In this document: positions 7,320 through 54,624 of the stretch, one piece after another | Numbering within the stretch: the stretch's first letter is position 1 | How the letters are laid out: every line of letters starts with the position of its first letter | From: a virus | Lineage: Duplodnaviria; Caudoviricetes | Virus record (IMG/VR): IMGVR_UViG_3300020042_003419 | Coordinates: 1-54,624 of that record | DNA length: 54,624 bases | Reading direction: 5' to 3' (one strand) | Program-made: the position numbers and the translations under genes | Notes under the pieces: model-generated | Told to the model about the DNA's origin: nothing | The model's database searches: none | The model's input: the letters and a program-made list of their open reading frames with translations, nothing else

Positions 7320-8957
7320 TTAAACACCGCAACTACCACCCTTGCCAGAGATGTCACAAATGTCTAGCTCTTCATAGACAACATCTTTGTGCTTCAGCGC
7401 TTCCTCATACGGCACTGCCGTAAGGGGTTGACCACCACGACTACCGTCAGGATAGCAAGTGAATCCACGCAGTCGAGGCGCATACTTAGCCAATGTATTA
7501 GCAAAGGTTTTTACCTCGTTCTCATTGTTGTGCTTAGTTCCCCACGATGGTAGATTGATAGTTGACGAAATAGACATGTCAACATAGTCTTGAATGTCTG
7601 CTTGAAACTTAATGCGCTGTTCATAGTTTTCACTAAGATCTAGGGCGCTCTCAATAGCATCTGGCTTAACACCATATTGTTGAATGAGCAAGTTGGCTGT
7701 ACCATCTACAACATATTGATACTTCCATTTCGTTCCTTCAGTAAGGAAGCGGCGCTTGTAAGCAACAGCAAACAATGGCTCTATACCAGTAGTAGTACCG
7801 GCTAATATACCAATGCTTCCAGTGGGAGCAATTGCACGATAGGCAACAGGACGACTGATAAAGAAACGATCACAATGCTCATCAGCAGCACGTTTGCTTT
7901 CGTCACGATATACCGACAACCACTTGTGCAACTCTGGAGAAACTTCATACTTATATCCCTTCTTCAGCAACCATTCGTGAATTCCCATTAAACCAAGACC
8001 AAGGCGACGATTCTTCTCACGAACCTTGTACACCTTATCATAAGGCAAGTCAGCCCGTAGCGTACCACACACCAAGAATTTAGAACCAAGCTCCACCACT
8101 TGTTTAAACTCTTCAAGGTTGATGATGCGTCCCATGTTAATGCTACCTAGATTACATACATCACTATCATCTTCTGACGTAACTTCTGTACAAGCATTAC
8201 GCAAGGTTTCATTTTGCTTAGCACCAAAGTTAAAACTGAATCCGGGTTCAGCAGTCTCCATTGCTTGACGAACGTTCTGCAAGAACACAGCATTGTTCTC
8301 AAGACCACCAACCATAGAAGCATCGTCGTAATTGACGCTGATGTTTGTCATGTCCAATGGTGCAGAAGCGTTAAAGTCTTTAATCTTCATAGCTTTAATG
8401 TCTTCATTCCAGTTCTTGATGTACAGAAACTTCTGAATGTCTTCATGTTGCCAATTCAAGCTGGCATAAATAGCAGAGCGGCGACTACCGCCTTGCATTA
8501 CGTTGCGACCAATTTCATTGATGGCAGACATGAGAGGGATAGGCCCTGATGCAGTGCCGCCAGTACGCGACAGAGCCTTGCCAGCGGGGCGTAGACGCGA
8601 GTAGTCAATGCCAATGCCACCACCAGTCATCAAGCATGACATTGCTCGCCATGTGACGTTGCTCCACTCTTCACGGGTGTCTTCTTCAGCACGTAGCAAG
8701 AAACAATTGTTGTAAGCCTTGAAGGGACGACCTGCGTAGTACAGATAGCGACCACCGGGGATAAACTTCATGTCTTTAATCATCTGTGTTAGCTGCTTAC
8801 GATCTTCATTGGACATGAGGATTGGCATCGTTCCATTACGACTGCCGCATACATCTTCTACCAAACGCTCTGACAATTTTGCCCATGTGTCACCGGGGCC
8901 TTGAGCATATTTAAAACGAAACACATTCTCTGCAAAGCTATTACGAAACTCACTCAT
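7320..8957 (-). CDS. nrdJ: Ribonucleotide reductase, probably class II (adenosylcobalamin-dependent)
   Basis: GGR, NNCF, NACTE (catalytic loop), CNLGSIN, APTG, C-terminal Cys pair; no nrdB-like gene seen. Confidence 0.85.
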   Translation of the reverse strand: MSEFRNSFAENVFRFKYAQGPGDTWAKLSERLVEDVCGSRNGTMPILMSNEDRKQLTQMIKDMKFIPGGRYLYYAGRPFKAYNNCFLLRAEEDTREEWSNVTWRAMSCLMTGGGIGIDYSRLRPAGKALSRTGGTASGPIPLMSAINEIGRNVMQGGSRRSAIYASLNWQHEDIQKFLYIKNWNEDIKAMKIKDFNASAPLDMTNISVNYDDASMVGGLENNAVFLQNVRQAMETAEPGFSFNFGAKQNETLRNACTEVTSEDDSDVCNLGSINMGRIINLEEFKQVVELGSKFLVCGTLRADLPYDKVYKVREKNRRLGLGLMGIHEWLLKKGYKYEVSPELHKWLSVYRDESKRAADEHCDRFFISRPVAYRAIAPTGSIGILAGTTTGIEPLFAVAYKRRFLTEGTKWKYQYVVDGTANLLIQQYGVKPDAIESALDLSENYEQRIKFQADIQDYVDMSISSTINLPSWGTKHNNENEVKTFANTLAKYAPRLRGFTCYPDGSRGGQPLTAVPYEEALKHKDVVYEELDICDISGKGGSCGV

Positions 8958-9336: not shown

Positions 9337-10229
9337 TAGAATAAATCTTTCCGTAGTTCTTTAACTTTTGCTGTTGTATAGTGGCTTAATGTTTTAAAAT
9401 TAATTGTCGGGTTCTTAAAGTCCTTTACCATTGTCCAAGCATCTTCACGAATCAAATCGTAAAACACTGTATTAATAAGTTGAGGAATGTTCTTACTAGA
9501 CCATCCTCCCGTATCATTAATAATCTTTGCAACCACCTTATCAACTAAGGATGATGTAACAAACTTATTAACAATTTTCTCTTCAACGATTTCACAACCG
9601 ATAAGAGGTGCTCCCATTTCTTTATGATGACCATCTTTGAATTCGTTAGTTACTATCTTAGCCCACGTAACTCGACCATACCTGTTTGCGTAGTCATAGT
9701 TCTTGATGACAATTCCTTCACCAACACCCTCGCCATCCTTAATTAAGAACGTGTTCTTTTCAAGGCATTTCGTAAACACATCAATGTCACCATTCTTGAC
9801 GATGGCAATTGGGGCTAGGTAGTTAAGACTATACGCTTTAAGTTTTTCTTCATACCTATCGAAAGGAATGAACCTTTGCGTAATGGTATTGAACACATCA
9901 AACACGTAGAACTTTCGCCAAGCAGTGTCAACATAAGTCTTCAACGTGTGTGGCACAAGCCACTCGCCATACAAAATATGATAGGGATGTTCAAGCAAGT
10001 AAGCACCAACTTGTTTATCTGTCAGCATAGCAGCATAGAAGCCAGCATTATCAGCCTCAAGCGATAGCTCCCTGTTGCGACTACCTGCCTTGATCGAATA
10101 GTCTTCTGCTGCCCATACACTGGCATTGGTGCCGTCAAGCTTAGGGAACACATAAGTAGTTCCAACTTCAATGGATTCCACTTCAGTGTTACCAAACTTC
10201 TCAAGGTGTGGATATTTTAGAAAGCTCAT
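9336..10229 (-). CDS. RNA ligase (Rnl2-like nucleotidyltransferase)
   Basis: KLDGTN (motif I), YGEW, FYVFDV, EGIVIK, WAKIV. Confidence 0.85.
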   Translation of the reverse strand: MSFLKYPHLEKFGNTEVESIEVGTTYVFPKLDGTNASVWAAEDYSIKAGSRNRELSLEADNAGFYAAMLTDKQVGAYLLEHPYHILYGEWLVPHTLKTYVDTAWRKFYVFDVFNTITQRFIPFDRYEEKLKAYSLNYLAPIAIVKNGDIDVFTKCLEKNTFLIKDGEGVGEGIVIKNYDYANRYGRVTWAKIVTNEFKDGHHKEMGAPLIGCEIVEEKIVNKFVTSSLVDKVVAKIINDTGGWSSKNIPQLINTVFYDLIREDAWTMVKDFKNPTINFKTLSHYTTAKVKELRKDLF

Positions 10230-10232
10230 AAG

Positions 10233-10391
10233 TTATTTCTTTCTACCTACAAGGGTGGCTGCAATAAAGAAAGTAAATATAGCAACTGAGGGAATATAGA
10301 TTGGCATCAAAACAAACCACCAACTCCAATCAATAATTAAAGTTAATTTAAGTGCAATAAATAATATTGCAAGCAATCCTAAAAATGTCAT
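10233..10391 (-). CDS. Small membrane protein (52 aa), absent from the ORF track
   Basis: MTFLGLLAILFIALKLTLIIDWSWWFVLMPIYIP...; LKL...IDWSWW..L.P pattern common in phage membrane proteins; ATGA overlap with the HNH gene. Confidence 0.75.
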   Translation of the reverse strand: MTFLGLLAILFIALKLTLIIDWSWWFVLMPIYIPSVAIFTFFIAATLVGRKK

Positions 10392-10762
10392 TTCTTTTTC
10401 TTCATTAATTTTTCTTCTGCCGTCTTTTCTTTATGGCAGGGCTTACACAAAATCTGTAGGTTTTCTAATTCGCAAAAAAGATTGTCTATGTAAACATCCC
10501 AACTTATAAATCCTTTGACGGGATCTACAACAGGGATGATATGATCGACCTGTACATCTGTAGCTACAAAATGTTTGTTACAACCAACACATTTATAATG
10601 CATTGCAAGCTTTCCAGTTTTACTGTTGGCCTTGCGACCAACAAAAGATTCTTTCATTGCTTTAAACTTTACAGGCCATCTACGTGAAGCGGCCCGTAGT
10701 GCTGATGTAACAAAACTTCTGAATCTAGCTTCTGTCCATTCTCCACTATTTCTCATTCTCAA
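10388..10762 (-). CDS. HNH endonuclease
   Basis: CxxC...VDHIIPV...NLQILCKPCH. Confidence 0.85.
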   Translation of the reverse strand: MRMRNSGEWTEARFRSFVTSALRAASRRWPVKFKAMKESFVGRKANSKTGKLAMHYKCVGCNKHFVATDVQVDHIIPVVDPVKGFISWDVYIDNLFCELENLQILCKPCHKEKTAEEKLMKKKK

Positions 10763-10952
10763 GATTGTCAGTTAGATGAGATAAGTTTATTTGGTTCTCA
10801 GCCGTATAGAATAACTCATTTACAATATCCATAGCTTCTTTACGGGTATACGCAATAAGTTCTTCTTCATATTCTTCATCTGAACAAACAATAATATAAC
10901 CATTGCTGGCTTGTCTGATGGTTACTTCAATATCGCTCATTGTTTCCTTCAA
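10746..10952 (-). CDS. Hypothetical acidic protein
   Basis: Packed in the operon; start may be the second Met. Confidence 0.6.
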   Translation of the reverse strand: MKETMSDIEVTIRQASNGYIIVCSDEEYEEELIAYTRKEAMDIVNELFYTAENQINLSHLTDNLENEK

Positions 10953-11112
10953 TGGTTAGATCTTCATATTCAATGTTACGAACATCAAATTCATCAAGAG
11001 CACTGGTAATGTGAGCACAAATAGAATTGAGAAATTCTTCTTTACTTTCGTATTCTCCCTCAACTTCAAGATCGTCAAACTCCGCAGTAAACGCTACTGT
11101 CACTGTAATCAT
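10927..11112 (-). CDS. Hypothetical acidic protein
   Basis: ATGA overlap with the upstream gene. Confidence 0.65.
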   Translation of the reverse strand: MITVTVAFTAEFDDLEVEGEYESKEEFLNSICAHITSALDEFDVRNIEYEDLTIEGNNERY

Positions 11113-11474
11113 TTCGTTCCATCCTTATCAAAAGCAAGTAAAAATAACATGCAACACATGGCGTGTGCGAGGTGGCTCATACCAGTTTCACTATCGTTCT
11201 TTTCACCAGCAGCATAGGCGGTAAAGTGACGAAAACCTGCATCAATATAGCGCTGCCTAGCGTTAGGAACCTTCTTCCAGTTATCAGGAGAATACTTCTT
11301 TGCGCCATATGTAAGCACATCAACAACTTCAGTCAACGCGCCCCACTGCATCAAGCTCCATTGAGGCTTATCGTTGTCATACTTAACTCCAATAGTGTCA
11401 CTATCATCAATAGATTTTACATATTTTTTAAGTTGAGTATCATCCACCCAAAAGTCAGTAAAGTCACTTTTCAC
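11109..11474 (-). CDS. dATP/dGTP diphosphohydrolase domain protein (DUF5664-like)
   Basis: G.KYD..K...GAKKYSPDNW...RH...GE..D.ETG..HLAHA. Confidence 0.8.
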   Translation of the reverse strand: MKSDFTDFWVDDTQLKKYVKSIDDSDTIGVKYDNDKPQWSLMQWGALTEVVDVLTYGAKKYSPDNWKKVPNARQRYIDAGFRHFTAYAAGEKNDSETGMSHLAHAMCCMLFLLAFDKDGTK

Positions 11475-11815
11475 TGCACACCTCCTATTGTTGGTGTATT
11501 TTCATTTAAAAAATACTCTTCATCAAATAAACTTAGCTGAATCGGAGCACTGGAGGTATATTCAATATCACCAAAAGATTCTTTGCAATGGTTATAAGCT
11601 TTTTCTGCAAGATCTTCATCTGTCTCAAGTAGTTTAGCACAAGACGCAGTAAGCATTGCTGATGAAACAAGTGTTCCAATCTCATCTTCAGATAGTGTAA
11701 GAGGGCCAATTCCACTAATGAAAATATTATAATTACCATTCCAATTGTTATCATCAGAAATATTTGGACGAAAAATAATTATTACATCGTTTGGTTTAAA
11801 TTCAAGCTCAGTCAT
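11471..11815 (-). CDS. Hypothetical protein
   Basis: 114-aa ORF overlapping both neighbours. Confidence 0.7.
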   Translation of the reverse strand: MTELEFKPNDVIIIFRPNISDDNNWNGNYNIFISGIGPLTLSEDEIGTLVSSAMLTASCAKLLETDEDLAEKAYNHCKESFGDIEYTSSAPIQLSLFDEEYFLNENTPTIGGVQ

Positions 11816-12527
11816 TTTTATTCCTTAATGTAGGTGGTATCCATAATTCATTATCAAATCTTCTAAGCCAAAGCAGCCTAGCATTTTCAAGTACCCTGTC
11901 AGCATTACCTTCATAAGCATCTAAGCAAACCTGCCACATTTCAATCTCATCATTGTTGGTTTCGCTAAGCATTTTAGCAGCCCTTGCTGGCCCAATGTTC
12001 ATGAGTCCTTTGATGTTATCAGCATCGTCGCCTGAAAGTATTTGCTTATAAAATGATAGCAGTCCTTCTTCTTTAGTAACGTAGTATCCAACGTTCTTAA
12101 CAAAGTTGTAGTGCCATCCGGGTATCTGATCAAAGTCTTTATCAACACTAACCATGATGCAATTGCCTTCACCGAGAGTTGTTGCCTCAGTAGCAATAGC
12201 ATCGTCAGCTTCAATGCCGTCAACATTGATAGCGTTCCATTCCTTCAATAACCATTCACGCATAGCTTGATGATGTTCTGGTTTGGGCGCTGTTCTGTTT
12301 CCTTTGTACGGGGCAGTCACTGCAATTTGTTCACGGAAGTTTCCTTTGCCGGTGATGTAGAGTTTCCAATCATCAACAAAGCATTCTTCATACGTGCGAT
12401 CTACTTTAAGTGCAAGGATGTCAACGATGTAACTACTAAGTCTGAGCCTAGCAATCCTAACGTCTTCATCCTTGCAAGCAAAAGCAATCCTGTAAGCCAG
12501 TATGTCGGCGTCCAGTAAAGCAATCAT
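11808..12527 (-). CDS. 5'-3' exonuclease (T7 gp6-like)
   Basis: LLDAD, NFR...YKGNR, EADD, DKD, GD.ADNIKG motifs. Confidence 0.9.
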   Translation of the reverse strand: MIALLDADILAYRIAFACKDEDVRIARLRLSSYIVDILALKVDRTYEECFVDDWKLYITGKGNFREQIAVTAPYKGNRTAPKPEHHQAMREWLLKEWNAINVDGIEADDAIATEATTLGEGNCIMVSVDKDFDQIPGWHYNFVKNVGYYVTKEEGLLSFYKQILSGDDADNIKGLMNIGPARAAKMLSETNNDEIEMWQVCLDAYEGNADRVLENARLLWLRRFDNELWIPPTLRNKND

Positions 12528-12540
12528 TAGTCAGTGATGC

Positions 12541-12954
12541 TCAAAGAGCTTCATCTTCGTTAATGTTACCACCAGAACCAACGTACTCAATCAAGTCGGT
12601 GATGACTAGCTTAACAAGAGTGGGGCTGATGCCTTTCTTGTTCTTGTAAGTCCAAGGATAGAAGCCAACAATTGCACGAGCCTTACTCTCATTGCCAATC
12701 TCTTCTGTAATTTCATCACCTTCAGTATCAAAAGCCTTGATGGGCTTCTCAGACTTGCAAGTGATGTACATGCCTTTCTCTGGACTCTTATCATTAGACT
12801 GAACGCTAATGCCCATTTCTTCCAAGGCAGCAACAGCACCCTCTGACAAGTTGCACAGATCAACGGTATACTTACCCGCCATCTCATTCAACTTATTGTT
12901 AAAGCACCAATACACGGTAGCCTTAATCTTCACACGCTTTTTATCTTCACTCAT
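12541..12954 (-). CDS. Single-stranded DNA-binding protein (T7 gp2.5-like)
   Basis: Lies between polymerase and exonuclease; KY.VDL..L and IGN.S patterns; acidic C-terminus. Confidence 0.7.
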   Translation of the reverse strand: MSEDKKRVKIKATVYWCFNNKLNEMAGKYTVDLCNLSEGAVAALEEMGISVQSNDKSPEKGMYITCKSEKPIKAFDTEGDEITEEIGNESKARAIVGFYPWTYKNKKGISPTLVKLVITDLIEYVGSGGNINEDEAL

Positions 12955-13029
12955 ATAAACTTCCTTTTGAAAACGGTGGCGCTAACGAGGCCACCTATGC
13001 CGCTCTGTTAAACACACAGAGAATGTACA

Positions 13030-15144
13030 TTATACATAGCCTTCATCAACTTTAGTAACTGGTTCTTCGTATCCAATCAAAAGTTTCTTAGCTGCATCAA
13101 CATAGTAGTTGTAGTCAATGTCGTTGTTGAAGTCGTTGATGTCATTACAAACCTTCATTGCCCAACCGCTTTCAACACTAAGCCTACGATCAGGATCACC
13201 AGTATACACGGGAGGCATAACCTTAATCAGTTGTCCACCATCTTTACAGGCATAGTAACGACAAATGTTTTGTTGCTGTATCTCAGTACCATCATCAAAC
13301 ACTTGTACCAGCTTGCTGCTACGTGGCACCTTAGTGCGTAGCATAAAGTCGTACTTGTCTTCATGGTTGCTAATGAATTCGTACAGGTCAGCATCATACA
13401 GGATAGCCGCTTCCGCAGCCATTGCAATGATGCGGCCCCCTTGGTCTTGATGCCAGCCTAACCCTTCATATTGGTACGCTCCCTTGCGTTTAACCTTGCC
13501 ATCTGTGTACACGGCAATGTAGTTGTTAACGTCACGTATAACCATCTTTGCATACTCAGCAAACTCAAGCTGAAGATTCACCTGCTCTTGCCAATCTTTG
13601 CAGATCTTGTTGTACTGAGGGCGACTACCGCGAGGCAGCAGCACTGTGACACCATCGGTATTAACCTGAACAATCTTCAGTCCTTTGATGGCAAGAAGCT
13701 TATCAGCTAACAAGCACAACAGCAACTGTCCATTGATGGTGATGGTCATCGTGTACTTAGGGTCATAGAAGGGGCTGTACTTGTTATTGCTATCACCATA
13801 GACACCATTCAAGGCCAGCTTCAACATGGCATTCTCTGCCGTGTTCTTTGCATAGCTCTTACGTTGCTCATAAACATCTTTGTAAATGACACAGAATTCC
13901 TGTGACAGATGTTCAGGATAGACGTTGTTGCTAATGGCAATGTTTGGATACATGGAAGCAACGTCAGCATCAACAATGGTGTAGTCAAAGTCTTCTTCAA
14001 CAATTGATGGTGGCACACTGCCATGAATACCTCCAGTGCCAAAGTCAAAACGAAAGCCATCAACAACAACGTTTAAGGTGGTTGCTTCTTTCCAATGACC
14101 CCAATAGCTGTATTGACTTTCGCCTTTCTTCTTAGCCTTCAGTTCTTTTGTCTGAACCCAACCAAGCGGATGTTCAAGATTAAAATCAACAATCTCTTCC
14201 ATCGTTGGCTCTTCTTTAAACTTCTTACGCTTCTCAATTGTCTCAGCGTATGCAGATACAGACCCAAGCAAATGCTCCTCAATGTCTGAAAAAACACCTT
14301 TAGTTTCTGTGATGTTTTGCTGCTTGAACCATTCAACCACAGCTAAGAACTCAGGACGTTTGAAGTCGTAGTAATCAAACAAGCATTCTTCAATAGCAAT
14401 GCTAGGACGCTTTGTTTGGTTGATGCTGCGAGAACCATCCTTATTCTTCTTATAGCAACTTTCAGGCATAGCTTTCTCAAGCTGCATGATGAAATAGTCT
14501 TTACCAATTTTGGTGTCGTTATGGTTGATGAAGCTACGCTTATATTTCTTTGTCAGTTCTTCCCTGAAAGTAATCAAAGGAATAGATAACAAATAGAAAC
14601 GCAAGGTGTTGTCAACATCGTGCATGTTGTATGTGATTAGCACATCCATCTGATCTTCTGTTAGCACTGTTCCGGGCGGGTATGGAAGATCACAGATGTT
14701 GTCAGCCTTCATATTAAACTCAAGCATCTTCAATGATGTGGATCTAGCTACATTATCAAAGTGATAGATTTTAAATAGGTCAACCTGTTCAACCATATCC
14801 TTGCCGTTAGAGCGCCTAAACTCACGCTTCTGATCAGCAAAGATTGCTTGTGCTAGGCGATAGGCTTTGTCAGCAACAGCTTTGCCTGACACTGTGACAG
14901 CCTTAACCCTAACTTCAAGCAAGCCTTTGATAACTTCCCAATCAAAACCAACATTGTTAAAGCCAACTAAGCGATCACCATTGTCATGCAAGCAATCAAG
15001 AAAAGCAAACATTTTGTCTGCTTCATTCTTGCGCGTGGACATTTCAAACACCTGACGTTCACTACCATCAGACTTGATGGCAGCAAAGGTGAAGATGTTT
15101 GGATATGTTTCCAAATCGTAAATGTAGTCGCTCATGTATTTCAA
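13030..15144 (-). CDS. DNA polymerase, family B, with 3'-5' exonuclease
   Basis: ExoI DLETY, ExoII FNNVGFD, ExoIII YNMHDV; Pol motif A DVASMYP, motif B KLALNGVYG, motif C NTDG; KxKG. Confidence 0.9.
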   Translation of the reverse strand: MKYMSDYIYDLETYPNIFTFAAIKSDGSERQVFEMSTRKNEADKMFAFLDCLHDNGDRLVGFNNVGFDWEVIKGLLEVRVKAVTVSGKAVADKAYRLAQAIFADQKREFRRSNGKDMVEQVDLFKIYHFDNVARSTSLKMLEFNMKADNICDLPYPPGTVLTEDQMDVLITYNMHDVDNTLRFYLLSIPLITFREELTKKYKRSFINHNDTKIGKDYFIMQLEKAMPESCYKKNKDGSRSINQTKRPSIAIEECLFDYYDFKRPEFLAVVEWFKQQNITETKGVFSDIEEHLLGSVSAYAETIEKRKKFKEEPTMEEIVDFNLEHPLGWVQTKELKAKKKGESQYSYWGHWKEATTLNVVVDGFRFDFGTGGIHGSVPPSIVEEDFDYTIVDADVASMYPNIAISNNVYPEHLSQEFCVIYKDVYEQRKSYAKNTAENAMLKLALNGVYGDSNNKYSPFYDPKYTMTITINGQLLLCLLADKLLAIKGLKIVQVNTDGVTVLLPRGSRPQYNKICKDWQEQVNLQLEFAEYAKMVIRDVNNYIAVYTDGKVKRKGAYQYEGLGWHQDQGGRIIAMAAEAAILYDADLYEFISNHEDKYDFMLRTKVPRSSKLVQVFDDGTEIQQQNICRYYACKDGGQLIKVMPPVYTGDPDRRLSVESGWAMKVCNDINDFNNDIDYNYYVDAAKKLLIGYEEPVTKVDEGYV

Positions 15145-15497
15145 GCAGCAACTGCAAACACTTCTTGTTGAGCAGCAGGTTGAACAAAATCTGTGCTTGA
15201 TTCGTCAGGTAGTGGCTTGTACAAAGTGTTATAGGTTTCAAAACTTCCATCATCGTTCAGTACAAATACAGCGCTTGTGTTGACAATACCAATAGGAAGA
15301 TTATAGTGATTGAGAGCATACAGCTTTGCCTGTATCCAATTTTCATTTCTAATGATGAAGTCTATATCACCAATAAAAAACACAACAGGTTTTTGTTTAC
15401 CATCATGTTTCTTTTTGCTTTCAAGTAAAAGAGATTTCACTGGTTCTTCGTGAGTCTTCTTTTCAATCTTCTCTTGCCAAAATCTAATATAAGACAT
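15141..15497 (-). CDS. Hypothetical protein
   Basis: AAGGA SD; packed between helicase and polymerase. Confidence 0.7.
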   Translation of the reverse strand: MSYIRFWQEKIEKKTHEEPVKSLLLESKKKHDGKQKPVVFFIGDIDFIIRNENWIQAKLYALNHYNLPIGIVNTSAVFVLNDDGSFETYNTLYKPLPDESSTDFVQPAAQQEVFAVAA

Positions 15498-15509: not shown

Positions 15510-17126
15510 TCAAAGTGCGTCAGAAATATCATCAGTCGGTGTCATACGACCAGTGATCTTGTTGTAAAGTAAGCAACCGGCAGGGCCAGTGGTGCCACTA
15601 TAGCGGTTCTTTAAAACCCTACACTGAGTAGTGTTTCTCACAATAGGATCGTCATGTTGTCCATTGCGTTCAAGGCCAATCACCATGTCGCTAAGCTGTG
15701 CAATGGATGCACTACCGCGCAACTGTGCAAGGCTGGTGGCAGCACCCTCTTCATGACCCTTGTCACTCGGGCGCTTCAGATGGCTGACGATGATGAGGGC
15801 AATGTTTGTTTCTTGTACAAGCATACGCAGCTTAGTCATAATTTCGTCAATGGCTTTACGCTCGTCACTGTTCTCCTGTGCAGATACAATGATGCTCAAG
15901 TGATCAAGGAAAATGTAATTGCAACCAAGACCTTTAGCCAAGTAGCGTACACGGTTGACAATGTTCTCGACACTTGTGCTTCCAAAGTGATCAAACAAGA
16001 ATACCCGTCCACTACCAAGAGTGGCATCAAAAGCACGGCGGCGTTGTTGATCAGATACAAGCGTCAGAGTAGGTAAATGCAAAGGCATATCTACAGCTAA
16101 GCTCATCAAAGACAAAGCCGTCTTCTTAACACTTTCCTCAAGAAACATTAAGCCAACGTTATCAGAAGTGTTTTGTAGGATGTGCCAAGCAATTTCGCGT
16201 AACACTTGGCTCTTGCCTAATCCGCTACCAGCAGTGACGGTGACAAGCTCACCAAACCTAATACCATAAGTAAGATCGTTCAATGCCTTCCAAGGATATG
16301 TGCAGTCTGCTGGTGCCATCGGCTTAGACACCTCATCCCACAGCGTAGAACCGCTCACAATGCCATCAGGAATGAAACCCTCACTAGCCCACCAACGACT
16401 GACAAACGCTGTTGTTTTGCCATCAGCAAGCCAGTCGCATGCATCTTTGTATTCTGGTAAAGGTTTGAATACTTTGACCTTACTACCAAACAACTCAGCC
16501 ACTTCCTTTGACGCCTTCATCCCCGGCTCATCACCATCAAAGCAGATGATAATGTTTTCAAAGCTATTCAAATATTCGTAGGAGTCTTTGCAATTCTTTA
16601 AAGCAGCAGCAGCACCATTACGAATAGATACAGCAGGATATTTAGAACCAGTAAGTTGATACACAGCCAAGGCATCAAACTCTCCTTCAGTAACAGTGAC
16701 ATACTTACCTCCAGACGGGAATATATTTTGACCAAATAATGTACCGGCAGAAAAGTTTCCAACGGTTGAAAATGTTTTCTCTTTAACGCTTCTAACCTTA
16801 GCACCACAAAGACTGCTATCTTTATCATAGTAAGGAAAGTAGTAGTTGCCATCGTTACGAACAACACCAAACCTTTCCATAGTTTCTTTGGTTAACTTAC
16901 GTTCAGCTACAGATACGCTGATACCTTTATTGTAATTGTCTAAGAAGCTAGACATGTCTTTGACGACAACGGTTTCGGTGGGCATAGATTTATCAGTGTA
17001 GGTTGATTGTTCTGACGGTGTGAATTCTGCACAAGCAAAACAATAGGTTGAATAGTCATCGTTGATGGACAAGCCATCACTGCTTCCACAATCAGGGCAA
17101 GCTTTGTGGATGGATATAAATGTCAT
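15510..17126 (-). CDS. DNA primase-helicase (T7 gp4-like)
   Basis: N-terminal CxxC...CxxC zinc finger; TOPRIM EGEFD and FDGD; Walker A GSGLGKS; FLEE, DHL, LRGS, KNR. Confidence 0.95.
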   Translation of the reverse strand: MTFISIHKACPDCGSSDGLSINDDYSTYCFACAEFTPSEQSTYTDKSMPTETVVVKDMSSFLDNYNKGISVSVAERKLTKETMERFGVVRNDGNYYFPYYDKDSSLCGAKVRSVKEKTFSTVGNFSAGTLFGQNIFPSGGKYVTVTEGEFDALAVYQLTGSKYPAVSIRNGAAAALKNCKDSYEYLNSFENIIICFDGDEPGMKASKEVAELFGSKVKVFKPLPEYKDACDWLADGKTTAFVSRWWASEGFIPDGIVSGSTLWDEVSKPMAPADCTYPWKALNDLTYGIRFGELVTVTAGSGLGKSQVLREIAWHILQNTSDNVGLMFLEESVKKTALSLMSLAVDMPLHLPTLTLVSDQQRRRAFDATLGSGRVFLFDHFGSTSVENIVNRVRYLAKGLGCNYIFLDHLSIIVSAQENSDERKAIDEIMTKLRMLVQETNIALIIVSHLKRPSDKGHEEGAATSLAQLRGSASIAQLSDMVIGLERNGQHDDPIVRNTTQCRVLKNRYSGTTGPAGCLLYNKITGRMTPTDDISDAL

Positions 17127-19315: not shown

Positions 19316-19552
19316 TCATGTGTTCTTACTCCGTAATGCGGCTTCAATCATGGATGCAAATTCCTGTGGCCCCATTCGTTTGTAATACGTGTCGTGTATC
19401 TCTTGCACTTCTTTCTGCGTCAGCCCTACCCACGGGCGTTGATCTGGGCTATTTGCAAGAGATTTAAAAAAATCATTGTCCACCGGACGCTGCTCTGGCT
19501 GTGCTGCGGGTGGGGTGGGGCACATCTGCAATGCTTCGTCTTTAGTCATCAT
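19316..19552 (-). CDS. Hypothetical protein
   Basis: PPAAQP...RPWVGLT...FA..IEAALRSKNT pattern seen in small phage proteins; ATGA overlap. Confidence 0.7.
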   Translation of the reverse strand: MMTKDEALQMCPTPPAAQPEQRPVDNDFFKSLANSPDQRPWVGLTQKEVQEIHDTYYKRMGPQEFASMIEAALRSKNT

Positions 19553-20382
19553 GCACCATTCTTATAAAGATTAACCGTCATATCAACAATATCATTATGC
19601 TTATACAACACATCAAGCCACCGCTTAGGTATGTTGCCATATCCATACAACCTGCCAGCAATCATACCAGCCACTGCACCAACTGTATCGGCATCACCAC
19701 CTTTGTTTACGGCATGCACCACAGCATCTTCAAAGCATGATGTGGCAAGCACAGACTCCCATGCTGATCCATAGCAACCCATGACAGATGTGTCAGGCTT
19801 ACCATGAGCAAGCCTCATAAGCACATCGTCAGGCTTAGCAGTGCCACTGTGCAACTCAAGGGCAAGCTGTGATGTATAACGCACTGTTTGACTTGTGCCA
19901 TGTGTCATCAATGCAATTGCTACGCTCTGCCCAATAGCTTGTGCCATGTTGCCATGATTGGCAATGATGATGGGGGCCAGTCGCATGATGGAGCCATTAC
20001 CGTTTGACATGTATGCAATGGAGCCAGCATAGGGGTGCTTGGCGTCAAACTTAGAACGGCTTAGCGCATCACGGGTGTTGTTGCCAATGTCAAACACATG
20101 GTCACGGGTTCCAAAGTCGCCATAGTTTGCCCAGCTTTGGAAGTTGCGAGCAATGGCAACAGGTGCAAAGTCTCCTCCATATCCTACGTATGCATCGGCA
20201 ATGCACATCATCATGGCTGTGTCATCTGTCCATTCTCCGGGGGATGTGTTATGCACACCACCACCAACCATTTCAGTTAGCTGTTCATTGGCAGCAGACG
20301 GGCCACAGAACTCCAAAGGTGCGCCAAGTGCGTCACCCACAGCACCGCCAATAAACATTCCTAAAGCTTCATCGTATGTCAT
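19549..20382 (-). CDS. ADP-ribosylglycohydrolase (DraG/ARH family)
   Basis: GDALGAP, WTDDT, DIG, GNGSIMRLAP, TH, GGDADTVGAVAG. Confidence 0.95.
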   Translation of the reverse strand: MTYDEALGMFIGGAVGDALGAPLEFCGPSAANEQLTEMVGGGVHNTSPGEWTDDTAMMMCIADAYVGYGGDFAPVAIARNFQSWANYGDFGTRDHVFDIGNNTRDALSRSKFDAKHPYAGSIAYMSNGNGSIMRLAPIIIANHGNMAQAIGQSVAIALMTHGTSQTVRYTSQLALELHSGTAKPDDVLMRLAHGKPDTSVMGCYGSAWESVLATSCFEDAVVHAVNKGGDADTVGAVAGMIAGRLYGYGNIPKRWLDVLYKHNDIVDMTVNLYKNGA

Positions 20383-20399
20383 ATTTTTCCTTTTAAGGT

Positions 20400-20466
20400 G
20401 AGGGTACTCGCTGCACTGGATTGATCTGTGCTAGTAACGGCGCACCCCAGCATCTGCTTTCCCCTC
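20400..20466 (-). ncRNA. Putative structured RNA with loop-E/sarcin-ricin-type internal loop
   Basis: Minus strand: GAGGG/CCCUC stem, GAAA opposite GAGUA, further GC/GC, UGC/GCA and UGG/CCA helices, GUGC/GCAC hairpin. Confidence 0.6.
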
Positions 20467-20473
20467 GTAAACA

Positions 20474-21313
20474 TTACGCTGCAATAGCGTCTGCAATGTC
20501 CCACAGTTCTGCATTGATACGGACGTGTTCCTTGATGGATGACACATTACGTGCCTTCCGCAGATGCCCTTCAGGATGTGACGGGTTCAAGCTCTTAACG
20601 AATGCATTGCCACGGATGACACCTTCCTGAATGCGGTTGAACACAGTGAAGGCATCCATGTAGTTGTCTTGCCACCGTGTAGGTGTCAGCACATTGGTGA
20701 CGGTGTGGTCAGTGGCAAACACACCTTTTGTTTGTCCATCATACATGTCCCAACGTGTTTGCACACTACGGCGAGCAACATCACGGGCATCCTCAACGGT
20801 GAGGGTGATGCCACGCAGTCGTTCCATACGCTCCATCAACGATGGCAATGTGGCAACGGTGGTGTTGAGCATTTCTTCAAAGCCTGACAGCGCTTTGCTG
20901 TGATACACACGGCTTTGGAAGCCTTCGCCAGCAATGATGCCGTTGCTGCAAATGAACCGGAAACAACCAGCGAATAGCTTCACGCTGCCAGTGCCATCAT
21001 GGCTGTTGTACAAGATGATCTCAGGACGGATGCCGGTGCCATCGTCACCGTTCATGGGCTTGGCAAAGGCAACCATGTGGCTTGCATGGTCAGCAGCACC
21101 AGCAATACGGCTACGCTTTTGTGCTGCTTGCACAGGCTCATATCCATAGTCTGCCAACACAGGGATGATGTCGCTAGTATGCAACGACACATACCTATCT
21201 GTCAGGCGGTCTGCCTTGGTTGTGCTGTACACGGCAGGTGCCAATTGCTTGATACGCTCTGCTGTCAGGGCTGTGTTGTTAACATTGCGAGAGAAGATTA
21301 CATGGTTTGCCAT
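20474..21313 (-). CDS. DUF932-family protein
   Basis: AP.V......RY...T, PEIILYNSHDG.GS..L.AG.FR.ICSNG, FNRIQE, N.ELW; start 21313 after AAGGA. Confidence 0.85.
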   Translation of the reverse strand: MANHVIFSRNVNNTALTAERIKQLAPAVYSTTKADRLTDRYVSLHTSDIIPVLADYGYEPVQAAQKRSRIAGAADHASHMVAFAKPMNGDDGTGIRPEIILYNSHDGTGSVKLFAGCFRFICSNGIIAGEGFQSRVYHSKALSGFEEMLNTTVATLPSLMERMERLRGITLTVEDARDVARRSVQTRWDMYDGQTKGVFATDHTVTNVLTPTRWQDNYMDAFTVFNRIQEGVIRGNAFVKSLNPSHPEGHLRKARNVSSIKEHVRINAELWDIADAIAA

Positions 21314-21351
21314 GATGTGTTTCCTTAGTGGAAGTTGTTGAGGAGGGCCAG

Positions 21352-21380
21352 ATTGTGCCAACTTTAAAAGTGTTTGTCAA
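21352..21380 (-). promoter_or_regulatory. sigma70-type promoter
   Basis: TTGACA-N17-CACAAT upstream of the DUF932 gene. Confidence 0.7.
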
Positions 21381-35550: not shown

Positions 35551-35768
35551 GCAAAGAATATCTAAACAGGCTTAAACCGCTTGTCAACGCTCCTTTGCAG
35601 TGGCAAGCTTTTGAAGAGATGCTTGAGCATTACATTATTCAACATCAACGCAAGTTAGAACAATCTTCTGAACCCATTGATATGTACAAAGCACAAGGTG
35701 CTATTTCTGCTCTACGGCAACTTAAATATTTAAAGGATGAAATCAATGTTTATAACAAAGCGAAATAA
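35547..35768 (+). CDS. Small helical protein following the portal
   Basis: YKAQGAI..LR.L..LKDE pattern. Confidence 0.7.
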   Translation: MSKEYLNRLKPLVNAPLQWQAFEEMLEHYIIQHQRKLEQSSEPIDMYKAQGAISALRQLKYLKDEINVYNKAK

Positions 35769-37560
35769 ACTTCTTGCTGATGGAGGCATGTTGCAAGAGG
35801 GTGGAACTGTCGATGAAATTAGTGGAAATGACGTTCCAATTGGTTCCACAAAAGAAGAAGTTAGGGACGATATTGATACCAAACTTAGTGTTGGTGAATA
35901 TGTATTTCCTGCCGATGTTACTCGCTATTACGGAATTGCAAAGCTTGAAGAGATGCGTAAAAAAGCTCAAGACAGTTTGAAACAAATGGAAAGCGGTGGA
36001 CGGATGGGCAACGCTGAAGAAGTGTCTGAGGAAGCAATTGCTGCTTATGACGAGGGTGAGTTTGCTAATGAAATTGATGATTCTATTGCAGAGTATGATA
36101 AAGAGCAAGAATATAATACAGGTGGTGTTGTAACATACGATCCTGCTGCTAGTGAAGAAAAGTATAAACGCGCTCCGCTTAAAGGTTTTGAAATGATTCC
36201 TATGTCAGATGACAAAGGTAATGTTATATATATACCTTTCGTTAACGGAAAACCTCAATTGGCTGTTCCGTTTGGTTATTCAATTAAAGCCGCAACTACA
36301 ACCCCTCCCGTTAATACTCCTGATGGCACAACTCCTACATCACCCGCTGTTCCTCAAGGCCCGACTGGTGGCGCTGGCGGCGCTCCAAGTAAAGGTGGTT
36401 ATACTCCAACATCTTCGTTAAGTTCTTCGGCTCCTATATCAGTTACAGGAAATATTCAAGCCTCACTTGAAGGATATTCTACTGCTTTATTTGGATTGCT
36501 CCCCTTTGCTATTCCAGCAAAAGTTATAGCAAATATGATGGTTGATAAGGCCGCTGTTGCTGAAGCTCAAGCAACCACAGATGCTATTGCTGCTGCCGTT
36601 GCTTCTGGAGTATCTCTTGGTGGTGGCTATGGAACACCTGTTTCTCAAGGTGGATATGGTGTTACCTCTCCGACAGGTGCAAGTATTGCAGCAAACCCAA
36701 TGGGGGTTGATCCAGCTACAGCACAGGGTCAGCAAGCTAATCTATCGTCTATTCTTTCACAAAGCATTGCAGATTCAATTGCTAATAACACCGATCCTAA
36801 CACTTCTCTTATTTCTGTGATGGCTCAACAAGGATTATCTTCAAGCGTTGGAGATACATCTGCCGCAGCTATGGGACTTAGCAGTAATGTAGGCGTTGCA
36901 GCGCCATCTTCAGGCGTATCAACTGCCGCCGTTGGAAATACCTCTCCCGCAGCTATGGGGCTTTCTAGTATGGGCGTTGCTGCTCCTAGTTCGGGTGGTG
37001 GTGACGGTGGTGGTGACGGTGGTGGTGTTGGTGGTGGTGACGGTGGTGGTGTTGGTGGTAGCGGTGTCGGTGCCGCTGGCGCTCCCGGTGGCGGCGGTGG
37101 TGCCTCTGGAGGCCCCGGCGGTGCTGGTGGTAGCGGTGTTGGCACTGCTTGCGTAGATCCAAAAACACTGGTACTTCTGGCTAACGGTTCTGAAATTTCT
37201 GCAGGGTTGTTAAAAATCGGGGATGTTGTCCACACACTCCATGAAGGCACTTTTGAATACGGTGACTTTGAAATTACCCGTGCAAAAATAGTACAGCAAC
37301 CAAAGAGAGTTATTAAATTTACAGACGCAAGTGAAATTACTACATCTGATTCTCACAAGTTCTTGCTTACTAACCGTGAGTGGAAAACTGTAGAAGACTT
37401 AAAACAAGGTGATGCTATTGAAACTGCACCAAACATAAATGCTGATGGATTTAAAGTTGTTTCCTCTATGGAACAAATAGGTAACGGCGATGTAGTCATA
37501 CTAACTATTGATCAGGCTCATACCTATATTTCAGAGGGACTTGTTTCCCATAACAAGTAA
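35737..37560 (+). CDS. Head-module protein with GG tags, Gly-rich linker and C-terminal Hint (BIL-like) domain
   Basis: N-terminal GG.V...DDI...LS.GEYV.PADV.R..G domain; Hint from Cys472 (CVDPKTLV...L.IGD.V...TSDSHKF...W..V..L..GD...HTYI..G.VSHNK*). Confidence 0.85.
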   Translation: MKSMFITKRNKLLADGGMLQEGGTVDEISGNDVPIGSTKEEVRDDIDTKLSVGEYVFPADVTRYYGIAKLEEMRKKAQDSLKQMESGGRMGNAEEVSEEAIAAYDEGEFANEIDDSIAEYDKEQEYNTGGVVTYDPAASEEKYKRAPLKGFEMIPMSDDKGNVIYIPFVNGKPQLAVPFGYSIKAATTTPPVNTPDGTTPTSPAVPQGPTGGAGGAPSKGGYTPTSSLSSSAPISVTGNIQASLEGYSTALFGLLPFAIPAKVIANMMVDKAAVAEAQATTDAIAAAVASGVSLGGGYGTPVSQGGYGVTSPTGASIAANPMGVDPATAQGQQANLSSILSQSIADSIANNTDPNTSLISVMAQQGLSSSVGDTSAAAMGLSSNVGVAAPSSGVSTAAVGNTSPAAMGLSSMGVAAPSSGGGDGGGDGGGVGGGDGGGVGGSGVGAAGAPGGGGGASGGPGGAGGSGVGTACVDPKTLVLLANGSEISAGLLKIGDVVHTLHEGTFEYGDFEITRAKIVQQPKRVIKFTDASEITTSDSHKFLLTNREWKTVEDLKQGDAIETAPNINADGFKVVSSMEQIGNGDVVILTIDQAHTYISEGLVSHNK

Positions 37561-53753: not shown

Positions 53754-54624
53754 ATGGGATTTGATCTATTGGCATTTGCTGGCGGCGCTGCCACCGCTAT
53801 TGAAGAAAAAATAGATGCTTCTGAAAAAGAAGCTAAGACGTTTGCTATGGCTTCTACAAAAAACATGTACGAAAAGTATTTGAAAAAAGTTGAAGAAGAT
53901 AAGAAGCTTAGCAGTGAAGCAGCTAATGATATGGAATTAATTAAATCTAATTATTCTATTATGTCTGATGGTAAAACATTTACACCAGAACAGCTTGAAC
54001 AAATTACTCGTAGTCCTGCCAATCGTAAGTTTCTTGTAGACGCGATTGCTGGTGGTAAAATTAATTTTAATAATCTTGATCCTGAACAAATGGTTAAGAT
54101 TGTTACTAATAATAGCTCACCAGATGTTGCTCGTAACAGACTTGATCAAGCTTTAAAACTTGATACTACTTTGAAAACTAAGCTTGCAGAAATTTCCACC
54201 AACAAGCAGATGGGTTTCTTTGATAGTATTGGAAACAAAGCTGGTAAGTCTGCAGCACAAAAAACAGCGTTGGCTCTTGGTGTTACTGTTGAAGAGATGC
54301 AAGCAAAACTTGCAGAGACTCGCCCAGAGGCTACGGCTAAGTTTGATTTTAGTGGAATGAAAGCTCGTGAAAATTCTAAAGACTTAATGGATGATGCAAG
54401 AGTTAGAGCCTTTAAAGCTTATAAAGCTGGTGATGTACAAGGTGAAAAAGATGCTCTCATAGACTTTGCAGTATTCCAAGCATACGAAGATAAGCCCAAA
54501 ACAGAAAAAGAAAAGCTGGAAGAAGAAAAAGCTCGACTAACTACTCTTGCTGCCAAAGGTGGTAAAGAAGGTAGCGCTGCTCAAAAACAATTAGACGCAT
54601 ATACAGACGTTGAGGCTAGAGAGA
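53754..54624 (+). CDS. 5' part of the internal virion protein continuing at the contig start
   Basis: AAGGA SD, ATG 53754 (MGFDLLAFAGGAA...), no stop before the end. Confidence 0.85.
   Translation, partial: MGFDLLAFAGGAATAIEEKIDASEKEAKTFAMASTKNMYEKYLKKVEEDKKLSSEAANDMELIKSNYSIMSDGKTFTPEQLEQITRSPANRKFLVDAIAGGKINFNNLDPEQMVKIVTNNSSPDVARNRLDQALKLDTTLKTKLAEISTNKQMGFFDSIGNKAGKSAAQKTALALGVTVEEMQAKLAETRPEATAKFDFSGMKARENSKDLMDDARVRAFKAYKAGDVQGEKDALIDFAVFQAYEDKPKTEKEKLEEEKARLTTLAAKGGKEGSAAQKQLDAYTDVEARE
54504..54624. repeat. Terminal direct repeat / circular overlap (copy 2)
   Basis: See 1-121. Confidence 0.95.

Follow-up and report, generated by a model that had tools for sequence, protein, structure and literature searches.

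The window analyzed here is the whole of a virus record from IMG/VR (IMGVR_UViG_3300020042_003419; Duplodnaviria, Caudoviricetes), 54,624 nucleotides (nt) in length, and the gene in question encodes a family B DNA polymerase (PolB) on its minus strand. The gene lies in a T7-like replication cassette, in the slot that is occupied by a family A polymerase (PolA) in T7, P12053L, Puniceispirillum phage HMO-2011 and Roseobacter phage CRP-1, in agreement with a preliminary description made from the sequence, which had named PolA as the normal polymerase of T7-like, Zobellviridae and HMO-2011-type phages. Close relatives of the window carry either PolA or PolB in this slot, and PolB probably entered the lineage by in-situ replacement of an ancestral PolA. 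The cassette consists of the following open reading frames (ORFs), with protein lengths in amino acids (aa):

15510–17126, minus strand: T7 gp4-type fused primase-helicase (zinc ribbon, TOPRIM, DnaB-like ATPase), 538 aa; Toprim_2 (7e-11), DnaB_C (2.2e-23), phrog_239 (3.9e-178)
15141–15497, minus strand: small ORF, 118 aa, in a variable slot between primase-helicase and polymerase; no family match
13030–15144, minus strand: family B DNA polymerase with 3'-5' exonuclease, phrog_1252 type; ORF from TTG at 15144, likely start at ATG 15135, 701 aa
12541–12954, minus strand: gp2.5-like single-stranded DNA-binding protein (SSB), 137 aa; phrog_112 (5.9e-8)
11808–12527, minus strand: FEN-type 5'-3' exonuclease, T7 gp6 analog, 239 aa; PF02739 (2.5e-9), phrog_107 (1.5e-62)
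11109–11474, minus strand: protein with PF18909 (dATP/dGTP diphosphohydrolase N-terminal domain; 5.6e-33)

The polymerase ORF has 704 open codons starting with TTG, and its true start is most likely the ATG at 15135, because the closest relatives align from residue 4 and have ORFs of 701 aa; the stop codon of the small ORF upstream sits 5 nt before this ATG. All polymerase motifs that had been read from the sequence (DVASMYP, KLALNGVYG and NTDG) were recovered as motif A (D394–P400), motif B (K442–G450) and motif C (N495–G498), and they fall in columns that are invariant or nearly so in a 99-sequence alignment (the window and 98 cluster representatives), in which the polymerase residues D394, Y399, K442, G450, N495, D497 and K552 as well as the exonuclease residues D10, E12, D68, Y172 and D176 are invariant or at least 90% conserved. 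Family B exonucleases have the consensus motifs ExoI (DxE), ExoII (NxxxFD) and ExoIII (YxxxD), which are present as D10/E12, N64–D68 and Y172–D176, respectively. The patterns of motif A (DxxSLYPS) and motif B (KxxxNSxYG) are likewise present, and HMMER aligns both with those of archaeal PolB. Motif C reads N495-T496-D497 and not DTD, hence the second aspartate is retained and the pair of aspartates is not. Since the asparagine is found in 99/99 aligned family members, it is characteristic of the family as a whole and does not represent a lesion; the metal ligand in this motif is presumably the second aspartate.

Profile libraries recognize the protein poorly, with zero Pfam families at E ≤ 0.01 and a score of 19.3 bits against the NCBIfam Pol II profile, for which the cut-off is 570. 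The best phmmer match among PDB sequences (E 0.0017) is an archaeal PolB and spans motifs A–C, and weak matches extend to E. coli Pol II, while the PHROGs collection assigns the protein to phrog_1252, annotated as "DNA polymerase" (E 1.4e-183). An alignment-based AlphaFold2 model reached a mean pLDDT of 95.1 and a pTM of 0.91, and among the matches listed by Foldseek for this model, 48 of 48 are family B polymerases (best E 2.1e-13, probability 1.00). VIA-align superimposed the model on KOD polymerase with a Z of 16.0 and an rmsd of 6.4 over 493 aligned residues; as model residues 1–696 match residues 132–754 of the KOD chain, the protein begins at the exonuclease domain, without the archaeal N-terminal domain. 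The ORF is confirmed as the gene of a complete, proofreading family B DNA polymerase. The family comprises 4,820 cluster representatives at E ≤ 0.001 and is known only from phages, with relatives in 954 phage records including Sashavirus, the Rheinheimera Barba phages, Curvibacter phage P26059A and Limnohabitans phage DC31. The PolB_SITDG group, considered as an identity for the protein, was ruled out, being a different group from cyanobacteria and algae (PMC7544198).

The neighbors foreseen by the preliminary description, namely a gp4-like primase-helicase and gp2.5- and gp6-like genes, are borne out by the Pfam and PHROG matches given above; for the exonuclease, PF02739 scores 37.5 bits against a cut-off of 34.3. 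The same holds for the lack of PolA, clamp and clamp loader that it reported: no PolA (PF00476) turned up when the record was searched in six frames over its full 54,624 bases, with a control that was positive in 10 of 14 genomes, and Pfam scans of 72 window ORFs gave no match to PolA, a clamp or a clamp loader. T7-type RNA polymerase was not seen in the Pfam scans of the window ORFs either. The 75 nt that separate the PolB stop codon from the ribosome-binding site of the SSB gene contain a short GC-rich inverted repeat followed by a T run (12971–12995, minus strand), which looks like a terminator or attenuator.

The window is an HMO-2011-type podophage genome, most likely a complete one. Its capsid and TerL are 87.9% and 72.7% identical to those of MW202701, a circular metagenomic genome from GenBank, and the corresponding values are 74.4% and 71.0% for CRP-1 and 70.7% and 74.2% for HMO-2011. 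The record is rated 97% complete with no end repeats reported, and it looks like a whole, circularly permuted genome, because in comparison with MW202701 the ORF at 53754–54623 appears to run on into the ORF at 1–615. In HMO-2011 and CRP-1 primase and helicase are encoded separately and the PolA contains a DnaJ zinc-finger insert, HTVC115P has a fused primase-helicase followed by PolA, and MW202701 has the arrangement of the window, with PolB. Measured against the HMO-2011-type group as it is described in the accessible text of Qin et al. (2022; PMC9038755), the window shows the capsid and TerL kinship, at the identities to HMO-2011 just given, but has PolB and a fused gene where a DnaJ-type PolA and split primase and helicase genes define the group.

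The polymerase and its neighbors have different kin. The nearest homologs of the primase-helicase outside the lineage belong to HTVC115P (52% identical), HTVC104P (50%), Ralstonia phage vRsoP-WF2 (48%), CRP-171 (47%), Aeromonas phage MQM1 (45%), CHOED (45%), Syn5 (44%), P12053L (44%) and T7 (gp4; 38% over the full length), and in 9/9 of these phages, which are all those examined outside the lineage with a primase-helicase at least 38% identical to that of the window, PolA lies just downstream. The nearest PolBs outside the lineage are those of DC31 (55% identical), P26059A (51%) and Barba19A (47%), which also lie downstream of a fused primase-helicase, but one that is merely 25–28% identical to that of the window. 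The SSB has a full-length homolog in the annotated SSB of HTVC115P (E 7e-7) and shows no similarity to the gene after PolB in P26059A and DC31, and the exonuclease is 29–36% identical to those of PolA-bearing podophages and 26% identical to that of DC31. A careful primase-helicase tree of 27 rows, chosen from 47 by dropping CRP-9, three PolB-bearing contigs (L018, L021 and L052) and near-duplicates, separates eight DC31-type rows from the other 19 (10 of the lineage and nine PolA-linked) with support of 100/100, and joins the lineage to the HTVC103P-type phages (91/90). In MQM1 (L085), whose capsid is 39% identical to that of the window, the PolA gene (9762–12932) is annotated as three joined pieces; of its two putative introns, one contains an HNH ORF.

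Among close relatives of the window, the polymerase slot is polymorphic. When IMG/VR was scanned with PolB, 19 of the 79 loci retrieved shared the cassette of the window (PolB 64–92% and, where the gene is complete, primase-helicase 63–93% identical), and PolA was present in 0/79. A scan with the primase-helicase retrieved 79 loci at 57–93% identity, three contigs being shared with the PolB scan; PolA follows in 41 of these and PolB in 27, whereas 11 end at most 679 nt past the helicase gene. Pfam confirmed PolA in 4/4 loci checked. Gene order is alike in both kinds of locus: ADP-ribosylglycohydrolase, DUF932 protein, integrase, primase-helicase, PolA or PolB, SSB, exonuclease, a homolog of the window ORF 11471–11815, and HNH, with flanking proteins 50–78% identical to those of the window. 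The kinship extends to the structural genes, as six PolA-bearing records (those behind L118, L128, L130, L131, L142 and L145; completeness 98% or more in five and 90% in one) have capsids 83–85% identical to that of the window. For PolB-bearing records the corresponding values are 81% (L069), 79% (L102), 78% (L148) and, for a gene split across the record ends, 75% and 82% (L154), and the latter two records have direct terminal repeats. By comparison, an HMO-2011-type capsid is present in 0/5 records of the 76–94 kb phages with the related PolBs, three of which are at least 91% complete. Had PolB been found throughout the clade defined by capsid and TerL, it would count as ancestral and not as swapped in; HMO-2011, CRP-1, HTVC115P and the six close records all have PolA. 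Different polymerase families at one position with neighbors unchanged, one criterion for an in-situ swap in the accessible text of Yutin et al. (2024; PMC11348598), are found here, and the swap from PolA to PolB that the preliminary description had proposed for this lineage is supported.

The number and direction of the changes were assessed on phylogenetic trees. In a careful primase-helicase tree of 31 rows, rooted on HTVC103P-type phages, the basal branches of the lineage are PolA-bearing (L169, and a clade of L168, L170, L172 and L176), and the crown mixes 15 PolB and nine PolA rows. At minimum, four label changes are required on this tree, its well-supported branches force two, and 0/200 bootstrap trees manage with a single change (5–95% range 3–4). 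These counts from the primase-helicase tree may bear on the further criterion of Yutin et al. (2024; PMC11348598) that the backbone tree reject a separation of PolA- from PolB-bearing genomes. A quick tree of 75 rows gives three changes, with 36 PolB and 27 PolA rows in the crown. On the helicase tree, the polymerase family thus changes no fewer than two times, with three to four changes as the most likely number. In a quick tree of 21 rows, the PolAs of the lineage group together (SH-aLRT 93) and show this basal grade again, as expected for vertical descent. In a quick tree of 73 PolB rows, from which rows shorter than 600 aa and duplicates were dropped, the PolBs of the lineage also form one clade (98), which is nested in a 37-row clade (98) holding DC31 and P26059A; their sister is a pair of contigs (L033 and L040) with a DC31-type primase-helicase. 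Quick trees of the neighboring genes interleave PolA and PolB labels as well, with five changes for SSB and three for the exonuclease, of which the well-supported branches force one.

These observations are best explained, with a probability of about 0.8, by an HMO-2011-type phage in which the ancestral PolA was replaced in place by a PolB from a DC31/P26059A-like phage, PolA and PolB having alternated since. The ancestral PolA would have been located directly downstream of the gp4-type primase-helicase, and the source of PolB would be unrelated 76–94 kb phages like Limnohabitans DC31 and Curvibacter P26059A. PolB would have entered the lineage a single time, after which close relatives would have switched between the two polymerases at this slot, a minimum of two times and most probably three to four, the likely route being recombination in the conserved flanking genes. 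PolB is taken to be the replicase because it is the only polymerase in the genome and keeps all polymerization and proofreading residues; it would follow the gp4-type helicase without a clamp, extending primers supplied by the gp4-type primase.

Several points weigh against this scenario. The well-supported branches of the 75-row quick tree force one change only, and the polarity rests on outgroup rooting together with quick trees for PolA, PolB, SSB and exonuclease. In the closest PolA/PolB pairs, the primase-helicases are only 78% and the SSBs up to 83% identical, and no near-identical pair of PolA- and PolB-bearing genomes was found, unlike those in the accessible text of Yutin et al. (2024; PMC11348598). 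An AU test on the 27-row set did not reject a single clade of all nine PolA-linked primase-helicases (p 0.297), although this test predates the discovery of the PolA-bearing close relatives, which overtook it. Finally, in the 47-row quick tree the primase-helicases of L018, L021 and L052, which are PolB-bearing and 78–94 kb in size, were placed within the T7-type group on a very long branch (2.55), which may reflect either another pairing of PolB with a T7-type helicase or a long-branch artifact. In these three contigs the primase-helicase lies ~4.5 kb upstream of PolB.

Among the alternatives, the polarity could be the reverse, with PolB ancestral in the crown of the lineage and PolA regained on several occasions from related phages. 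In the crown of both primase-helicase trees, PolB rows are more numerous than PolA rows (15 vs 9 and 36 vs 27), and parsimony is blind to gain versus loss, with just one or two changes forced by well-supported branches. However, the HTVC103P-type outgroup and the five basal members of the lineage all have PolA, the PolA tree repeats this basal grade and crown in a manner that fits vertical descent, and polymerases of unrelated large phages surround the PolB clade, so that reverse polarity is unlikely. Even less can be said for a replacement of the whole module, in which primase-helicase and PolB would have arrived as a pair, like the module exchanges described for HMO-2011-type phages. Phages of the donor type do have a fused primase-helicase just upstream of PolB, but its low identity to that of the window (25–28%, against 52% for HTVC115P) and the 100/100 split between the two types speak against a joint transfer, as do the SSB and exonuclease kin in PolA-bearing phages and the occurrence of the same primase-helicase type with PolA in 41 contigs; this explanation is very improbable.

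It is also conceivable, if improbable, that PolB is an accessory or repair enzyme and that the host polymerase replicates the genome, to which the family-wide NTD in place of DTD in motif C and the lack of a clamp or other processivity factor in the Pfam scans would be congenial. PolB nevertheless holds the replicase slot of a complete cassette, where it alternates with a replicative-type PolA, it is the sole polymerase of the genome with invariant catalytic and proofreading residues, and its family provides the sole annotated polymerase in many isolated phages. That the record is an assembly chimera of two phages, which might be suspected of a metagenomic record without reported end repeats, has a negligible probability, given that the same junctions recur in 19/79 contigs of the PolB scan and 27/79 of the primase-helicase scan (three contigs in both), and that the arrangement is shared by the circular MW202701 and by two records with direct terminal repeats.

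Two elements had been proposed in the preliminary description to provide processivity or helicase coupling, namely a charged insert in PolB and the small ORF at 15141–15497, and as a feature of the lineage this idea is unsupported for both. The insert (approximately residues 300–355) is predicted with high confidence in the AlphaFold2 model to fold as a small β-rich unit. It is common to DC31, P26059A, Barba19A and many related contigs, where it is ~30 residues longer than in the lineage of the window, and it is absent from Sashavirus-type PolBs. The insert hence predates the transfer and was inherited from the donor PolB subfamily, and its interpretation as an adaptation to the new replisome was ruled out, since it is present, and longer, in donor-type PolBs of unrelated phages. 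The small ORF matches nothing in Pfam, PHROG or NCBIfam, and the leads of an Atlas search were all below threshold. Homologs lie upstream of PolB in L006–L009, L042 and MW202701, with a partial match in L137, so that it was seen in 7/17 lineage loci examined; the remaining loci have unrelated small ORFs in the slot, apart from L022, which has none (97-nt gap). This patchy occurrence rules the ORF out as a conserved accessory factor. In seven lineage loci without it (L011, L012, L013, L015, L020, L060 and L069), a different ORF of 55–68 aa is located directly upstream of PolB, with a conserved Gly/Lys/Arg-rich N-terminal half; in L020 it lies within a longer ORF of 104 aa.

The primase-helicase and SSB have acidic C-terminal tails, which end in leucine in 10/10 helicases and 18/18 SSBs of the lineage, whereas those of PolA-linked T7-like and HTVC103P-type phages end in phenylalanine (8/9 helicases and 6/6 SSBs). 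A change from phenylalanine to leucine as an adaptation to PolB was ruled out, as the PolA-bearing close relatives have leucine-ended tails too (one helicase ends in isoleucine), which implies that the trait predates PolB. In this lineage, one pair of tails is observed to serve both polymerase families. A co-fold of PolB with SSB scored 0.02 against a mark of 0.32, and bears neither way on binding.

The PF18909 gene, which sits three genes downstream of the polymerase, is present in 23/25 PolB-bearing and 0/19 PolA-bearing lineage loci that span the interval, while the intervening SSB and exonuclease genes do not follow the polymerase type. In two PolA-bearing loci examined, a DUF6378-like ORF of 87–89 aa occupies its place (L112, 11933–12196; L126, 11200–11469). 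The association offers one well-supported and three total independent contrasts, with which significance is unreachable, hence the link between PF18909 and PolB cannot be told apart from shared ancestry. A bolder and rather doubtful extension of the swapping scenario would treat PolA and PolB as interchangeable alleles of one locus in recombining phages, kept by host defenses that target polymerases, with one leucine-tailed helicase/SSB set driving either enzyme and the hydrolase gene (PF18909 with PolB, DUF6378 with PolA) matched to the polymerase.

The same arm also carries an integrase, ThyX, an HNH endonuclease, an RNA-ligase-family protein, MazG and a ribonucleotide reductase. The latter (7320–8957, minus strand; 545 aa) is 94–96% identical in the closest contigs (L007, L008, L009, L024 and L042) and only 21–25% identical to those of MW202701, HMO-2011 and CRP-1, and seems to be a second gene of the arm that was replaced within the group. 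Upstream of the integrase, genes for an ADP-ribosylglycohydrolase (PF03747, 1.6e-51) and a DUF932 protein (19549–21361, minus strand) are kept at the same place in PolA- and PolB-bearing relatives alike, and a role against ADP-ribosylating defenses is conceivable. In the structural region, a 607-aa protein (35737–37560, plus strand) has a weak match to an intein splicing domain (E 3.4e-5; 24.1 bits, below the cut-off of 35.8).

HMO-2011-type phages are regarded as one of the most abundant phage groups in the sea, and the polymerase serves as their marker gene. In the survey of Zhai et al. (2021; PMC8528129) only genomes with PF00476 were kept (318 of 1,242), and in that of Qin et al. (2022; PMC9038755) DnaJ-containing PolA was used as bait. 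A PolB without a Pfam match is not retrievable by such a filter or bait; PolB-bearing members are invisible to PolA-selected surveys, and the diversity and range of the group may be underestimated. Literature searches retrieved no report of a PolB in the HMO-2011-type group, and the main text of Yutin et al. (2024; PMC11348598) mentions neither HMO-2011 nor Pelagibacter nor Puniceispirillum; the supplements of PMC11348598, PMC8528129 and PMC9038755, which lay outside the search, may bear on this. The lineage also amounts to a natural experiment, in which homologous primase-helicases, SSBs and exonucleases (~55–83% identical) are partnered by a family A polymerase in some phages and by a family B polymerase in others, and makes the coupling of a polymerase to a T7-type helicase directly testable with matched parts.

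In comparison with the T7 replisome, the window shares the fused primase-helicase (in the T7-type group with support of 100/100), the gp2.5-like SSB, the FEN exonuclease, the order of helicase, polymerase and exonuclease, and the acidic C-terminal tails on helicase and SSB, but its polymerase belongs to family B and is not a gp5, the tails end in leucine and not in phenylalanine, and the structural genes are of the HMO-2011 type. With other phrog_1252 polymerases the window PolB shares the motifs, including NTD in motif C, and extended identity (47–55% over nearly the full length to DC31, P26059A and Barba19A, and ~51% over 86% in two pieces to Sashavirus), as well as the charged β-rich insert within the DC31/P26059A/Barba subgroup; these phages differ in their size of 76–94 kb, in their capsids and in their distant primase-helicases. 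HMO-2011-type morphogenesis modules combined with different replication modules have been described (Zhai et al., 2021, PMC8528129; Qin et al., 2022, PMC9038755), and the window resembles the phages in the accessible parts of these studies in its structural backbone, in the exchange within the replication region and in a primase-helicase that is sister to the HTVC103P type. Whole polymerase-helicase modules were exchanged there, however, whereas the exchange here concerns the polymerase only.

The closest parallel is the in-situ swapping of PolA and PolB that was noted for crAss-like phages in the preliminary description, and that is documented for Crassvirales and four other Caudoviricetes clades in the accessible text of Yutin et al. 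(2024; PMC11348598). As in those cases, PolA and PolB alternate at one position with their neighbors in order, the polymerase tree appears to disagree with the backbone tree, and even the PolB family is the same, as Barbavirus and Sashavirus (clades 2 and 3 of that study) match the window PolB. The swapped pairs there have 93–99% average nucleotide identity (ANI), while the nearest pairs here have flanking proteins ~78% identical, and in an Acinetobacter pair there the replacement took in the primase-helicase as well as the polymerase, whereas here the primase-helicase stayed. The HMO-2011-type lineage adds a clade to the five with in-situ swapping, one for which the donor group is identifiable and well defined. 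It represents a further case of a kind of polymerase swap that is already documented, and comes with matched PolA- and PolB-bearing relatives.

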